A stretch of 41,360 nucleotides of DNA from a phage. Below the pieces are notes generated by a model. That model worked only from the letters and a program-made list of their open reading frames with translations, was not told where the DNA came from and made no database searches. Shown here piece by piece: positions 97-41,360 of this stretch. Location: the NCBI GenBank assembly GCA_027217645.1, contig GCA_027217645.1_4344.1; one strand, 5' to 3'. Position 1 is the first letter of the stretch. Each line of letters begins with the position of its first letter. The position numbers and the translations under genes were made by a program.

Positions 97-585
97 TCAA
101 CCTTTCACCGCACGCCCGATTGCCTCAGCCTCCTGCCACGGTTTACCGTCGAACAATGCCAGACGTCCTGCGGTACGGCGACGCAGGCCAAGTAACGGTT
201 TGCCGTTCTGGTTGATGAACAGCGCCAGCTTAGCCCGCAGCGTCGTAATATCACCCGAACGCAGCGCCTTACCGGTTCCGGTAGTAGCTGCTATCACACC
301 AGCACCTGCGTTATAGACCAGGTCGCACACAGCGTCGAACTGTGCCTGTGTCAGCGAATGGTGTGCTGCTGCGTCAACAGCAGCTACAGCCTTAGCCATA
401 TCGCGATTCAGTAACAGCAAGCCCTGTCCTGGTGTGATGGTCTTACCTGGTGTTACGTCTGGCCCGTAGTGACCATAACCAATAGTCAGGTACTTCTCGT
501 TCGGCGTAGCGCTATACGCAGTTCCGCGGAATCCCTCGAACGCGGCACAGAAATGCAATCCATTATCTGAAATATTTCGAGACAC
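97..585 (-). CDS. Endolysin, T4-lysozyme-like (glycoside hydrolase family 24) fold
   Basis: ORF track 162 aa; N-terminal FCAAFEGFRGTAY...YLTIGYGHYG pattern typical of phage lysozymes; GTG start with GGAGGA RBS; sits after two small membrane-protein genes. Confidence 0.85.
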   Translation of the reverse strand: MSRNISDNGLHFCAAFEGFRGTAYSATPNEKYLTIGYGHYGPDVTPGKTITPGQGLLLLNRDMAKAVAAVDAAAHHSLTQAQFDAVCDLVYNAGAGVIAATTGTGKALRSGDITTLRAKLALFINQNGKPLLGLRRRTAGRLALFDGKPWQEAEAIGRAVKG

Positions 586-835
586 GCTTATGTCCTCCGT
601 ATGCCAGCCACGCCTGGCGAATCTGGCGCAGCGCGACTAATGTGATTAATGTCTCAGGCAGCGTAGGCGACATGCTGCCCTGTAACAGGTGAATACATCC
701 GGCGGCACAGACGATAGCAGTCAGGATATAGAGAACACGCCCGAACAGCCCGTCGTCCACGCGTTCATTATACACGTTGAACAGGGACGAAGCGCCCATT
801 GCCAGCATTACGACAAACCAGAATAGCTCAGTCAT
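563..835 (-). CDS. Small membrane protein, holin or antiholin candidate
   Basis: Track ORF 563..916 trimmed to the internal ATG at 835 (MTELFWFVVMLAMG...), which has an AGGAGG RBS and overlaps the stop of the upstream gene; two hydrophobic helices; position between holin and endolysin. Confidence 0.45.
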   Translation of the reverse strand: MTELFWFVVMLAMGASSLFNVYNERVDDGLFGRVLYILTAIVCAAGCIHLLQGSMSPTLPETLITLVALRQIRQAWLAYGGHKRVSKYFR

Positions 836-1136
836 GTGGTCCTCCTGGGCGGGCAATATCGCCGCCCGATACGATGCCAGAAAGGCGGGAATAGATAGGC
901 ATCCAGAGAATGGCAATGATGAATCCGAGGCCAGCTATCTCACGCTCACCGGTAATACCGAACCATTGAGCGGCAAGAGGTGCACCGAAAATAGCACACG
1001 CGAAGCCGGTGAGAAGAAATACCAGTCCGTCAATCGGCCCGGATATAGACTTTTTATGTTGCCTTAGTCCGATTACCCCACCAGCTAGTGCGGCGGCGAG
1101 AAGCCACCCCGTCACTGTTTCAGTAAATTTATCCAA
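828..1136 (-). CDS. Holin candidate with three predicted transmembrane helices
   Basis: Track ORF 102 aa; three hydrophobic stretches (WLLAAALAGGVIGL, LVFLLTGFACAIFGAPLAAQWF, IAGLGFIIAILWMPI); TTG start 6 nt after GGAGGA; first gene of the lysis cassette. Confidence 0.5.
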   Translation of the reverse strand: MDKFTETVTGWLLAAALAGGVIGLRQHKKSISGPIDGLVFLLTGFACAIFGAPLAAQWFGITGEREIAGLGFIIAILWMPIYSRLSGIVSGGDIARPGGPHD

Positions 1137-1142
1137 GATGAA

Positions 1143-1180
1143 TCCTCCAGGTGCGTATTAAGTATGCAGTAACTGGAGGA
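1143..1180 (-). promoter_or_regulatory. RNA hairpin that sequesters the holin Shine-Dalgarno sequence
   Basis: Seen in sequence: plus 1143-1150 TCCTCCAG and 1173-1180 CTGGAGGA are perfect inverted repeats; on the minus-strand mRNA the SD (CUGGAGGA, 6 nt before the TTG start at 1136) pairs with an upstream anti-SD across a 22 nt loop. Confidence 0.5.
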
Positions 1181-1211
1181 TACCACGGGTAGGAATTATC
1201 CTAATAGTTGT

Positions 1212-2413: not shown

Positions 2414-2442
2414 ATAGTAGCCTATTCTATCTTAGTGTGCAA
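2414..2442 (-). promoter_or_regulatory. Sigma70-like promoter, TTGCAC-N17-TACTAT class
   Basis: Seen in sequence: minus-strand -35 TTGCAC (2437-2442), 17 nt spacer, -10 TACTAT (2414-2419); spacer/-10 contains the palindromic box AATAGTAGCCTATT (2413-2426). Confidence 0.5.
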
Positions 2443-2958: not shown

Positions 2959-3106
2959 ACCTCACACCTCTTTCAATCAAGGATTGCACACCAGCTTTCC
3001 ACGCCCGCCACGCGAGACGCGTCTTAACGTTCAGGTACTCTTTCTTTGAACCCTTGTTAACCGGCAGACCCTCGACCACAGCCCACCGTTCAAATGCTTC
3101 TCTCAT
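2951..3106 (-). CDS. Small hypothetical protein (51 aa), not in the ORF track
   Basis: Hand translation MREAFERWAVVEGLPVNKG...; ATGA overlap with the upstream gene stop (3103-3106) and stop overlapping the DUF551 gene start. Confidence 0.3.
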   Translation of the reverse strand: MREAFERWAVVEGLPVNKGSKKEYLNVKTRLAWRAWKAGVQSLIERGVRYG

Positions 3107-3282
3107 ACCAGAACCTCACATTCATCCCGATACACGAACAATAACGACCCTTTGTACTCAATCATAAAACCATAATGGTTGATGCTGAACGCCGGAAAAA
3201 CATCACCTACCGAGATACCGAAATCTATAAGCCTGCGGTCAGTTATACGGATAAGCCTGCGGTCAGTTATACGGATTCGCAT
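3103..3282 (-). CDS. Hypothetical protein containing an exact 8-residue tandem duplication
   Basis: Track ORF 3103..3291 trimmed to the ATG at 3282 (TAATG overlap with upstream stop); protein repeats IRITDRRL twice, encoded by the 24 bp tandem repeat. Confidence 0.4.
   Translation of the reverse strand: MRIRITDRRLIRITDRRLIDFGISVGDVFPAFSINHYGFMIEYKGSLLFVYRDECEVLV
3227..3274. repeat. Perfect 24 bp tandem duplication (2 copies)
   Basis: Seen in sequence: ATAAGCCTGCGGTCAGTTATACGG at 3227-3250 and again at 3251-3274. Confidence 0.9.
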
Positions 3283-3485
3283 TAACGGCAACCTCCCTCA
3301 GCGTCGTCGGCACAAGCATCATGATTCGATGCCGTTCGTATTGCTCGTAAGCTATTTAACATTCGCTCGCTGGTAGATGTAATAACCGTTATACCGTCCG
3401 CCAGATGCACCTCGTAGCGTTCAGCTACGAAATATATTTCCTCGAAATCATGATGTTTCAGTTCTTCAAATAATTCTTCCATCAC
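3282..3485 (-). CDS. Hypothetical acidic protein
   Basis: Track ORF 67 aa; overlaps neighbours at both ends in a chain of coupled small early genes. Confidence 0.45.
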   Translation of the reverse strand: MMEELFEELKHHDFEEIYFVAERYEVHLADGITVITSTSERMLNSLRAIRTASNHDACADDAEGGCR

Positions 3486-3679: not shown

Positions 3680-3713
3680 AACCCTCACTCCTCTGTCTCG
3701 TTTCGATAAGTGA

Positions 3714-3742
3714 ATAGTACCCTATTATGTTGGGGTGTGCAA
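3714..3742 (-). promoter_or_regulatory. Sigma70-like promoter, TTGCAC-N17-TACTAT class, for the leftward early operon
   Basis: Seen in sequence: minus-strand -35 TTGCAC (3737-3742), 17 nt spacer, -10 TACTAT (3714-3719); contains box AATAGTACCCTATT (3713-3726); near-identical to the promoter at 25940-25968. Confidence 0.55.
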
Positions 3743-7229: not shown

Positions 7230-7293
7230 GTCAATTACTCCTTAGCCAGTTGATATGTGAATAGTACCATATTAATTATTTTAGAAAAGCCCC

Positions 7294-7322
7294 TTGACAA
7301 GTGAATAGTTCGCTATTATAGT
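7294..7322 (+). promoter_or_regulatory. Strong sigma70-like promoter, TTGACA-N17-TATAGT class, with embedded palindromic box
   Basis: Seen in sequence: TTGACA (7294-7299), 17 nt spacer, TATAGT (7317-7322); box AATAGTTCGCTATT (7304-7317); second imperfect box AATAGTACCATATT at 7260-7273; drives the gene at 7354. Confidence 0.6.
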
Positions 7323-9786: not shown

Positions 9787-9815
9787 TTGACACCTGAATA
9801 GTTAGCTATTATAGT
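9787..9815 (+). promoter_or_regulatory. Sigma70-like promoter, TTGACA-N17-TATAGT class, with palindromic box
   Basis: Seen in sequence: TTGACA (9787-9792), 17 nt spacer, TATAGT (9810-9815); box AATAGTTAGCTATT (9797-9810); upstream of the SSB-like gene. Confidence 0.55.
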
Positions 9816-25939: not shown

Positions 25940-25968
25940 TTGCACACCCCAATATAATAGGGTACTAT
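25940..25968 (+). promoter_or_regulatory. Sigma70-like promoter, TTGCAC-N17-TACTAT class, driving the plus-strand cassette
   Basis: Seen in sequence: TTGCAC (25940-25945), 17 nt spacer, TACTAT (25963-25968); box AATAGGGTACTATT (25956-25969); near-identical to the minus-strand promoter at 3714-3742. Confidence 0.55.
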
Positions 25969-25998
25969 TCACTTACACCAACAATGAAGGGGTTTAAA

Positions 25999-34561: not shown

Positions 34562-34643
34562 ACCTGCCCGCGCCGCGGTCGCTTGTTCATACTTCACAAG
34601 CTCAGGTGGAGCTTAGCACATTTTTGGTGAAAAGTCAACTATT
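34562..34643 (+). repeat. Copy B of the ~80 bp dispersed non-coding element (copy A at 3962-4042)
   Basis: Seen in sequence: identical 38 bp core at 34569-34606; the second hairpin differs from copy A by apparently compensatory substitutions. Confidence 0.8.
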
Positions 34644-34704
34644 CGAATAGTTTATTCCAACATTTACAATTGAGTGGAATAACTGGAATAATCACAGGCA
34701 CTAA

Positions 34705-35189: not shown

Positions 35190-36265
35190 TATTCCCCTTT
35201 CAGATAATCAGCAACACGTTTATCGAGTTCCGCCATCTGCTTAAGCGTGAGCGGATTCCCGAAACCATCTACAGATATTACGCGAAACTCTTCCGGCGAT
35301 ATACCGCTGTTACGGAAAATCTTACCTCGCACCGGGCCGAGCGCCTGGTCCTGAAACCACGCCGGTTGTTGTTTAAGGAACTCGTAGTAAGTGGTGTCTA
35401 CGCTTACCTGAGTGCCACCTTCCGCGCCTTTAGCCGCGCGTTTTGCGCCTTTATCGAGGAAGTCGAACTCGGAACTGATTACCGGAGCCGTGCACGACCG
35501 GCAGTTCGGATGGGCAGGGGGCATCGGCCCCTTACCAATTTCCCACGTCATCCCGTCTCTGACCCTGCAAATCGTACTGGTGCGGCTGTCAAGCGTTGAC
35601 ACCCACTCGTACTTCTCTATGATGTCGTCGTTCTGGCGGTACGTCTCGTTACGGGCTTCGTTGGACACGTGAGACAGCGCGGTGCGGATGACGGTAGCGG
35701 CGTTACGCTCAGAGATGTCAGCCAGCCCACCGGCGCCTACTACATTCTTAACAATCTGCCGTGTTGTTTGACCTTGTACAAAGCCCATCTTAACGCCGGT
35801 TACAAGACGTGCTACTTCCGTTTCACCCCAACCTGACATCAGTTTAGTGAAATCAACTGGCTTGCCACTCAATGATAATGGCTGAAACTCAGCAGCGGCC
35901 CACACCTGTTCGGCGGTTGGCGTAACAAATTCCGCATCTACGTTGGCGGTCAGGGTCTTTACGTTCCACTCAGCTTCATACACCGCCAGTTCCTTGAGGT
36001 CTTCTGCCAGCTTTGTTTGCCAGTCACCAGTAAGTCCTGTCAGTACTTCTTCAAGGTCACGTAACAGTTTATTCAGTCGCGCAGTGCTGCGACCGTCGTC
36101 GCCGAATAGCAGCACCTGCCGTTTGATTTCGTCCCGCATCCCCTTAACGAACGGCGCGAGGTCTTTCACCTCACCGGATGCGGTGCGTTGCAGCCATATT
36201 TGGTGGCTGATTAGTGATGTAAGTAAGCTCATAGATAAACCCTGTGGCGCTAAAGTTAATAGCAT
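35189..36265 (-). CDS. Head morphogenesis / minor capsid protein (SPP1 gp7-like, Mu F-like)
   Basis: Track ORF 358 aa; directly downstream of portal; true start could be the internal ATG at 36232. Confidence 0.65.
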   Translation of the reverse strand: MLLTLAPQGLSMSLLTSLISHQIWLQRTASGEVKDLAPFVKGMRDEIKRQVLLFGDDGRSTARLNKLLRDLEEVLTGLTGDWQTKLAEDLKELAVYEAEWNVKTLTANVDAEFVTPTAEQVWAAAEFQPLSLSGKPVDFTKLMSGWGETEVARLVTGVKMGFVQGQTTRQIVKNVVGAGGLADISERNAATVIRTALSHVSNEARNETYRQNDDIIEKYEWVSTLDSRTSTICRVRDGMTWEIGKGPMPPAHPNCRSCTAPVISSEFDFLDKGAKRAAKGAEGGTQVSVDTTYYEFLKQQPAWFQDQALGPVRGKIFRNSGISPEEFRVISVDGFGNPLTLKQMAELDKRVADYLKGE

Positions 36266-36301
36266 ACTATAAGAAAGCCCCTTTCGGGGCTATATGTGAA
36301 C

Positions 36302-39057: not shown

Positions 39058-39599
39058 TCCTCTACCTCACCCATATTCGTTGTTACAATTTTACCTACAG
39101 GCTCTGCAACACTAAAAATAATCTCAGTCGGTGCCGTTTCTTCGGTGGATTCGACTGGTTTCTCTTTACCGAGGCCCAGTTTAGCTGCGGCGAACGTAGC
39201 AGAGATGCCCGCGGCCCCTGTCTCAGTGAAATATGCCTCTTCCAGCGCCTGTGCTGTTTCATAGGCTTCTGCAAATGCGGGAATCTCACGCAGCCACAGC
39301 TTAATAATCGGGATAGTTACGCCGATGTGTGAGGCGAAGCGGGCCAGTGACGGCGGTTTATCCTGAATCAGCGGACGTTCGTCACCCTTGGACGTAGGCA
39401 CAAGTTCCCACGACGTACGGTCGAAGAACTCGATTAACGCGTCGCAATAGTCCGGGTCCCACAACGCGGCGGAATTACGGGACGATTGATAAAGGCTCTG
39501 TTTCCCACGCGGTCGTTTACGGCGACGGTTTGCGCTAACAGCTTCTTCATGTGCAGCTTGCACCACCTCTGGCGATGGCTGCTTAAGTTTCAGCTTCAT
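39054..39599 (-). CDS. Terminase small subunit candidate
   Basis: Track ORF 39054..39638 trimmed to the ATG at 39599 (AAGGGGA RBS); basic N-terminal region; immediately upstream of TerL. Confidence 0.5.
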   Translation of the reverse strand: MKLKLKQPSPEVVQAAHEEAVSANRRRKRPRGKQSLYQSSRNSAALWDPDYCDALIEFFDRTSWELVPTSKGDERPLIQDKPPSLARFASHIGVTIPIIKLWLREIPAFAEAYETAQALEEAYFTETGAAGISATFAAAKLGLGKEKPVESTEETAPTEIIFSVAEPVGKIVTTNMGEVEE

Positions 39600-40797: not shown

Positions 40798-40975
40798 TGG
40801 TATCACCCTTGTTCAGGTTGAAGCGGTTAATCAGTTCACGGCGTGTCTCGTAAAGCGACTCAACCATCTGCTCAGCTACTGCGATTTTAGTATTCAGGAC
40901 GTGCATCACGTGACCGATGTCTACGCCGCCGTTAACAGCCTCTACCATCATCTTTTCGTATTCACGGTCAGTCAT
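40790..40975 (-). CDS. Hypothetical protein
   Basis: Track ORF 61 aa; start overlaps upstream stop. Confidence 0.4.
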   Translation of the reverse strand: MTDREYEKMMVEAVNGGVDIGHVMHVLNTKIAVAEQMVESLYETRRELINRFNLNKGDTNA

Positions 40976-41309: not shown

Positions 41310-41338
41310 AATATAATAGGGTCTAAGGTAATAGTCAA
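41310..41338 (-). promoter_or_regulatory. Sigma70-like promoter, TTGACT-N17-TATATT, for the right-end minus-strand gene chain
   Basis: Seen in sequence: minus-strand -35 TTGACT (41333-41338), 17 nt spacer ending CCCTAT, -10 TATATT (41310-41315); related to the other promoters of the family. Confidence 0.5.
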
Positions 41339-41360
41339 CTAGTCATTACAGAAAACAGAT

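Follow-up and report, generated by a model that had tools for sequence, protein, structure and literature searches.

A predicted hairpin over the holin Shine-Dalgarno sequence of Kagunavirus and a candidate promoter in its 5' arm

As summarized in section 29 of PMC3014915, the long early transcripts of phage T4 genes e, soc, 49 and I-TevI sequester the ribosome-binding site in a hairpin; late promoters lying in the DNA of the hairpin's 5' strand yield transcripts that lack this strand and are translated. For gene e the masking effect is given there as approximately 100-fold (McPheeters et al. 1986, cited in PMC3014915). In phage lambda, the 'sdi' stem-loop of gene S (nucleotides -21 to -7) controls ribosome access to a G-rich Shine-Dalgarno sequence (SD; bioRxiv 10.1101/2025.05.14.654169), and the structure splits initiation between two starts, Met1 for the antiholin and Met3 for the holin. 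Here we describe a leader in E. coli phage DNA (the window, meaning the whole stretch of 41,360 nucleotides that was analysed) that recalls both systems. As in T4 gene e, the SD and start of a lysis gene are predicted to lie in a hairpin on transcripts arriving from upstream; the masked gene, however, encodes a holin-like membrane protein rather than an endolysin, the internal promoter would be a predicted host sigma70 extended -10 element rather than a late promoter (TATAAATA with gp55), and the two loci share no sequence homology. As in lambda, a stem-loop stands directly upstream of a holin gene and overlaps its SD, with a second hairpin just inside the coding region. Here, in contrast, the downstream hairpin (1126-1112) is not conserved, the gene has a single start, and the candidate antiholin or second holin is encoded separately; lambda sdi is the looser analogue, because the window's holin gene has no dual start.

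Holin production sets lysis time, and through it burst size and phage fitness. To our knowledge, early holin silencing in lytic siphoviruses that have neither a lambda-style Q nor a T4-style late sigma is largely unstudied. The 961 bases around the hairpin match 121 phage records at 80-98% identity, all of them Kagunavirus or near kin (K1G, K1H, K1ind1-3 and others; Guernseyvirinae), and by sequence the window belongs to Kagunavirus, a genus much used in collections for phage therapy. The features of the locus are as follows, in the order of transcription.

2414..2442, minus strand: predicted sigma70 promoter TTGCAC-N17-TACTAT, the nearest consensus-like promoter upstream of the holin
1505-1212, minus strand: hypothetical gene, 97 aa, first in order ahead of the leader
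1211-1137, minus strand: holin leader, 75 nt, between the 97-aa gene and the first holin-like gene
1190..1203, minus strand: small leader hairpin UAGGA-UAAU-UCCUA (from the fold; less conserved, with variable columns)
1177..1185, minus strand: extended -10-like box TGgTATCCT, overlapping the 5' arm (predicted, with a start near A1170)
1173..1181, minus strand: 5' arm AUCCUCCAG, the anti-SD strand (from sequence and folds)
1151..1172, minus strand: 22-nt loop UUACUGCAUACUUAAUACGCAC (from sequence)
1142..1150, minus strand: 3' arm CUGGAGGAU, which holds the SD GGAGGA (from sequence and SD accessibility)
828..1136, minus strand: first holin-like gene, 102 aa, TTG start at 1136-1134 (phrog_2359 'holin', E 9e-32)
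563..835, minus strand: second holin-like gene, 90 aa, ATG start (phrog_2508 holin)
97..585, minus strand: endolysin (phage lysozyme), GTG start (PF00959, E 1e-26)

The first holin-like protein has three predicted transmembrane domains (annotation of phage Shashou); the holin and antiholin labels of both membrane proteins come from annotation alone, and annotators disagree on them. The ATG of the second holin-like gene overlaps the stop codon of the first (ATGACTGA), and the endolysin start overlaps the end of the second by 23 nt (563-585). All three lysis genes carry GGAGGA-type SDs, and two of the three starts (TTG, ATG and GTG, respectively) are not ATG. Opening the translation initiation region of the second holin-like gene would take 12.9 kcal/mol, which places it with the most structured ones of the genome and suggests translational coupling. 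At its upstream end the leader begins exactly at a mosaic boundary, an 'AAAC' junction (1208-1214; loci L003-L035). Upstream of this junction genomes differ: some have the 97-aa hypothetical gene that the window has, others an unrelated gene for an HslV-like protease, and the leader is the same after either.

The initial annotation had placed the holin start at the TTG at 1136, and comparison with homologues bears this out. This TTG is the first ATG, GTG or TTG past an in-frame TAA (1160-1158), it is the annotated start in K1ind3, Golestan and Shashou, and it aligns with homologue N-termini (MDK, MSK, MHK, MDL and MDN) that begin on ATG, TTG or GTG; on this evidence TTG 1136 is the true holin start. 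A lambda S-type dual start is absent: homologues share the single MD(K) start, and the next in-frame start, a GTG at codon 8 (the N-terminus reads MDKFTETV), has no SD.

The same annotation had described an 8 bp stem with a 22-nt loop that encloses the SD of this gene, and all of its elements can be read directly on the minus strand: UCCUCCAG at 1180-1173 pairs with CUGGAGGA at 1150-1143 across a loop at 1172-1151, and GGAGGA (1148-1143) stands six nucleotides before the TTG (1136-1134), with UUCAUC (1142-1137) as the spacer. A ninth pair, A1181-U1142, makes the stem one of nine perfect base pairs rather than eight, and in relatives the first and last four nucleotides of the loop pair in addition. 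The SD helix is present in both the minimum free energy (MFE) and centroid structures (RNAfold). The 55-nt hairpin RNA folds at -15.9 kcal/mol (z = -2.6; three of 200 shuffles fold equally well), and the 116-nt leader RNA at -31.3 kcal/mol (z = -2.4; RNAfold). We compared SD accessibility over positions -60 to +35 of genes in the window, using rough gene calls (68 genes, 57 of them with a recognisable SD). The holin SD has a mean unpaired probability of 0.003, the lowest of the 57, and costs 12.1 kcal/mol to open, compared with a median of 3.3 (standard deviation 2.8); the sole higher cost belongs to a mis-assigned SD within a true terminator.

Stems of this length are not rare in themselves. 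With loops of 3-30 nt, the window holds nine k-mer matches for 9-bp perfect stems, against 5.5 +/- 2.8 expected from dinucleotide shuffles, and 33 for 8-mer stems, against 18.8 +/- 5.4. Because the 9-bp count is near the shuffled level, the hairpin alone is unremarkable; the features that exceed chance are its position and its conservation. A reading with no RNA function at all, in which the hairpin would be a chance feature, a DNA palindrome serving as a protein operator, or the mark of a recombination boundary, draws on this abundance of stems and on the leader's beginning exactly where the two alternative upstream genes are exchanged. We regard it as very improbable, given the evolutionary comparisons that follow.

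Three other explanations for the leader were considered. An RNA thermometer is ruled out by the nine perfect pairs, whose opening would still cost 9.5 kcal/mol at 45 C. An alternative anti-sequestor helix between AGGAUA (1202-1197) and UAUCCU (1182-1177) is feasible on paper and far weaker than the SD helix, and the upstream AGGAUA element is variable (G>A in many genomes). A leader peptide, or translational coupling to the upstream gene, also fails. The open reading frame from GTG1186 spans the hairpin (24 codons) with no usable SD; it is cut by a stop codon in LSPA1 (L019) and reads GTG-ATA-TAG in Dhillonvirus. The upstream genes end 31 nt (window type) or 14 nt (HslV-like type) ahead of the 5' arm, too far away to melt the stem. 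No Rfam covariance model matched the hairpin, and the hits over 900-1400 were limited to snoRNA-type chance matches (E above 3). Codons 4-9 of the holin gene can form another small hairpin, UUACUG-AAA-CAGUGA (1126-1112, minus strand); it is probably not under selection, since synonymous changes (ACA>ACT and ACT>ACC) break it in several relatives.

The leader is conserved beyond its surroundings. A 93-nt segment is 88-100% identical in all 121 Kagunavirus records (at least 95% in 112 of them), whereas 92 of the 121 show no more than 80-90% identity over the surrounding 961 nt. We estimated nucleotide diversity in 73 copies (60 distinct) from IMG/VR, metagenomes and GenBank, and obtained 0.011 for the 5' arm, 0.035 for the loop and 0 for the 3' arm plus spacer, compared with 0.10, 0.05 and 0.35 for first, second and third codon positions. 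Ascertainment accounts for part of the zero in the 3' arm, whose sequence was included in the pattern used to search metagenomes; the same limit applies to the observation that the arm, with its SD, is unchanged in all Kagunavirus copies seen, as part of these were found with that pattern. Over approximately 60 nt, the leader is about ten-fold less variable than synonymous sites, which argues against a sequence with no RNA function.

Among Kagunavirus relatives the 5' arm has been substituted in four backgrounds: A1174>G in Salmonella phage TU03 and again in EcoPhCCP1, C1176>U in phage Ivi, and C1175>U together with A1174>G in the divergent L094/L095 lineage. Every change is an A>G or C>U opposite U or G, turning a Watson-Crick pair into G.U. 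These changes are tolerated only in the minus-strand (sense) RNA, since a DNA palindrome, or pairing of the opposite strand, would turn them into C.A mismatches; this rules out a DNA palindrome or operator. (If transitions alone are considered, six of the nine possible 5'-arm changes are wobble-compatible.) Pairing also extends into the loop. The flanking U1172.C1151 mismatch of the window is G-C in L011, Ivi and CCP1, U-A in LSPA1 and TU03, and U.G in L094; further inward, these same relatives have A-U or G.U in place of the A.C mismatch of the window, and L094 has U.G instead of the loop-closing C-G. The extended stems of the relatives reach 11-13 bp.

For Kagunavirus and L094, to which the pairing counts are confined (stems across lineages were compared by hand), 91.5% of cells in 10 distinct variants are paired; sliding the partner column by 1-3 positions lowers this share to 20-45%. 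Of 500 column shuffles, 18 reach the covariation score of these variants, 0.150, and eight further pair types occur. These statistics are modest because the sequences are so similar. A one-column displacement of the 5' arm in the MAFFT alignment of Kagunavirus and Dhillonvirus leaders kept RNAalifold from returning a structure. L094 has an entirely different loop, yet keeps both the stem and the TTG start. It and L095 are metagenomic Kagunavirus-like contigs of about 41.3 kb whose first holin is 76% identical to that of the window; they have no second holin-like gene, the lysozyme gene following directly after the first holin.

Folding, the rank within the genome and the pattern of substitutions thus support a sense-strand RNA hairpin that is predicted to sequester the holin SD. 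The initial annotation had gone on to propose a structure that delays or throttles holin synthesis. Its SD-masking part is supported by folding, by genome rank and by the wobble and compensatory changes, and a throttle acting constantly is one of two live readings of what the mask does, taken up below with the promoter evidence.

We traced homologous holins by tblastn and profile searches into five further siphovirus groups, and in all five the 3' arm of a hairpin holds the sole SD-like G-run directly before the start.

Dhillonvirus: GUCCCAGUGAG-CUAAAA-CUUACUGGGAC, then U6, then AUG
KW1E_UTAR, KLB22 and two metagenomic relatives: stems UCCCCGGA/UUCGGGGA, GCCCCGGUAA/UUAUCGGGGU and AACCCCG/CGGGGUU
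Eiauvirus eiAU: GGCCCUGUA/UACGGGGCC, then UUUUCUU
Scapp and a relative: GGCCCC, a loop of 18-19 nt, GGGGCU, then UUG
P0037/P0038 group: a loop of 18-19 nt and a GTG start

The stems of the six lineages differ and yet persist, with compensated changes (the Dhillonvirus member L113, for example, has an inserted C-G pair), and this persistence is again difficult to reconcile with a feature devoid of RNA function. Each hairpin of the KW1E group is followed by a U-rich tract (U8, U7CU or U4AUU). In L110, the MFE structure pairs the SD elsewhere. Two Scapp-like members with a divergent upstream gene (L107 and L108), from which no transcription can enter the holin, have no such mask and start with ATG; when folded, L108 has a largely open SD and L107 one that is open only in part. 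No hairpin was found before the holins of Jilinvirus ep3 and Pseudomonas phage PPpW-3, which follow a 'late transcriptional activator' gene, and no comparable hairpin before that of Pectobacterium phage Arno18, so that the arrangement is not universal for this holin family. Further scans with the Scapp and KW1E holins added almost nothing. In eiAU-183 (L101, NC_023555.1), the RefSeq holin coding sequence starts at an internal ATG (locus position 622); we place the start 18 codons upstream, at locus position 568, on the basis of homology (MDLWQK...) and the geometry of hairpin and U-tract. In Scapp-like and P0037/P0038 phages (L103 at 291-314, L114, L109 and L110) a canonical terminator lies 25-60 nt upstream of the mask, and in Scapp and L114 this terminator is itself preceded by TACTAT; terminator, promoter-like box and mask in one leader look like a layered fail-safe.

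The U-tracts raise the alternative that the hairpin is mainly a terminator or attenuator against RNA polymerase arriving from upstream, its overlap with the SD being incidental. In Dhillonvirus, the KW1E-like phages and Eiauvirus the counterparts are short-loop hairpins followed by U6-U8, and the Dhillonvirus record WF5505 annotates its own copy as a putative terminator. We scored the hairpins by energy per nucleotide plus a weighted U-tail (d'Aubenton-Carafa et al. 1990), with a formula that is approximate, as are the following values: +19 for Dhillonvirus, +28 for KW1E and +15 for eiAU, all terminator-type with an ATG start, compared with -42 to -55 for the window, -38 for LSPA1, -18 for L094 and -63 for Scapp, all mask-only with a TTG start, and approximately +15 for the canonical terminators of the window's own phage group. 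(L109, mask-only and without a score, has a GTG start.) The positive-scoring terminators end 6-8 nt ahead of the holin ATG. They and the Kagunavirus hairpin are alike in position before the lysis cassette, but the Kagunavirus version has a 22-nt loop and the tail UUCAUCUU, with no U-tract. In addition, the 13 terminators that ARNold reports in phage Golestan exclude the Kagunavirus hairpin, our terminator scan of the window found none at this site, and in the mask-only lineages the hairpin occurs together with an SD at proper spacing and with TTG or GTG as the start. The hairpin of the window is not a canonical terminator, and we give the reading of it as chiefly a terminator little credence.

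A simple -35/-10/TG matrix (with approximate frequencies), applied to all positions of 95-nt leaders, ranks TGgTATCCT, in the DNA of the 5' arm, as the top sigma70-like site in the leader of the window. A site adjoining the hairpin is the best one in 10 of 12 leaders and in five of six lineages, a lineage count to be discounted in that the Kagunavirus and Dhillonvirus leaders are homologous and together count as less than two; in eiAU it is the second-best. Measured from the final paired base of the 5' arm, the predicted start (7 nt past the -10 box) lies at -3 to +1 nt. With a target of nine positions in about 89, the chance of such a placement is approximately 0.1 per lineage, and its recurrence in five of six lineages is unlikely to be an accident. 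The boxes themselves are as follows.

Kagunavirus and L094: TG(g/c)TATCCT
Dhillonvirus and L113: TGaTATAGT
eiAU: TGtTACCAT
Scapp: TAATCT
L109: TATAAT
L110: TATACT

KW1E has the near-consensus sigma70 promoter TTGACC-N17-TACTAT directly before the hairpin, with the -10 box ending where the 5' arm begins; in its relatives the stem covaries and TTGACC-17-TACTAT or TTGATG-18-TACTAT is preserved. TG and TATCCT do not vary within Kagunavirus, and they are separated by G or C (by A in Dhillonvirus), the pattern that a TGn motif would show if the predicted promoter is real. None of the five wobble substitutions touches the -10 hexamer; they are confined to the four stem bases that lie beyond it. The Kagunavirus TATCCT matches the consensus at four of six positions and has a poor -35 region, and a scan of the window for consensus promoters made no call at TGgTATCCT; TG and TATCCT could also be conserved as part or extension of the helix rather than as a promoter.

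Opening GGAGGA at 37 C is predicted to cost 10.7 kcal/mol in the long leader RNA, against 2.5 kcal/mol in RNA beginning at A1170, which has no significant structure (z +0.14); for the long RNA, the equilibrium probability of an open SD is about 3e-8. We lean towards a mask of the T4 gene e type, closed on read-through mRNA and open on mRNA from the predicted nested promoter. An mRNA entering from upstream genes would carry both arms, so that the SD would be closed and the holin left untranslated, insulating the lysis gene from earlier transcription. The weak extended -10 promoter (1185-1177) would sit in the DNA that encodes the 5' arm; RNA starting at about A1170 would lack this arm, be essentially unstructured, expose the strong GGAGGA and serve as the productive holin mRNA, with the weak TTG start tempering translation of the open form. 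Promoter activity, the start site, upstream read-through and the effects on translation and lysis timing are what we infer from predicted sites and folds. Our literature search found no mapping of transcription start sites for Kagunavirus, Dhillonvirus or Jerseyvirus, and a Kagunavirus RNA-seq study calls the lysozyme gene only 'middle', with neither per-gene nor 5'-end data for the holin (PMC12645636).

The initial annotation's alternative is that both arms are present on every holin mRNA and that no nested promoter exists. Initiation would then drop by a fixed factor, GGAGGA and an A/U-rich loop acting as a standby site would let through a slow leak by which the lysis clock is set, and the rate would be lowered further by the TTG start. 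The hairpin is stable and conserved, as such a constant throttle would have it, and the predicted -10 box is weak and was missed by the consensus scan. On the RBS-Calculator scale (empirical beta of about 0.45) a difference of 8.2 kcal/mol is only an approximately 40-fold drop, which would leave some expression. That the loop is so strongly conserved within Kagunavirus, a fact for which the masking model has no account, would also fit a standby site or another RNA-level role better than it fits a mask. However, an open-SD probability near 3e-8 is very low for a gene that has to be expressed, a throttle leaves the recurrent -10 box exactly at the 5' arm unaccounted for in five of six lineages, and the hairpin takes the form of a canonical terminator next to the start in three lineages, where the holin gene would be reached by little or no mRNA unless there were an internal promoter. 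We consider a constant throttle unlikely on balance, and comparisons among these sequences favour the transcript-dependent mask over it.

The transcript-dependent mask also calls for transcription from upstream. The motif TAATAGnnnACTATTCAC occurs nine times in the window, against 0.7 expected by chance: seven copies on the minus strand (2410-2427, 3710-3727, 7257-7274, 7301-7318, 9794-9811, 34627-34644 and 36255-36272) and two on the plus strand (25955-25972 and 41329-41346). The copies at 2410, 3710 and 25955 read in context as TTGCAC-N17-TACTAT, good host sigma70-type promoters. We know of no RNA polymerase encoded by Kagunavirus-type phages. The same motif was reported by PHIRE as a 'phage promoter' in Golestan and fBC-Eco01. 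The predicted promoter at 2414..2442 is a likely source of read-through transcripts, and a minus-strand scan from 2442-2414 to 1137 found no terminator-like site. Golestan has its holin at 40866, preceded by a last copy of this motif at 39128, and the next predicted terminator is at 44183. An imperfect palindrome, AATAG..CTATT, is embedded in the TTGCAC-N17-TACTAT promoters and could also be an operator.

Taken across lineages, these observations may describe one composite module ahead of the phrog_2359 holin in at least six siphovirus lineages: a hairpin that blocks expression from upstream, either by terminating transcription or by masking the SD, with a lysis promoter in its 5' arm, evolution having switched between the two modes. 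We advance this only tentatively, from sequence comparison. That the start codon follows the mode, ATG with terminators and TTG or GTG with masks, is an equally provisional part of this module reading. If the module is real, it would be a general, host-polymerase-based means of insulating lysis genes, like T4 gene e but of independent origin. The predicted hairpin adds to the known SD-masking leaders of phage lysis genes, with a plausible twist like that of T4 gene e common to several siphovirus genera. The terminators directly before the holins of Dhillonvirus and related phages probably contain a lysis promoter and the ribosome-binding site, judging from their sequences, which annotators should bear in mind. 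Should the model hold, Kagunavirus and its relatives would time holin synthesis by promoter choice, with a 40-nt element discriminating between transcripts; so compact and easily mutated an element would offer a handle for engineering lysis timing and a clean system for studying transcript-dependent translation. Elsewhere in the window, a small minus-strand open reading frame (3103-3291) contains a perfect 24-nt tandem duplication (2.1 copies, 3227-3276) that gives rise to the repeated peptide RITDRRLI-RITDRRLI.
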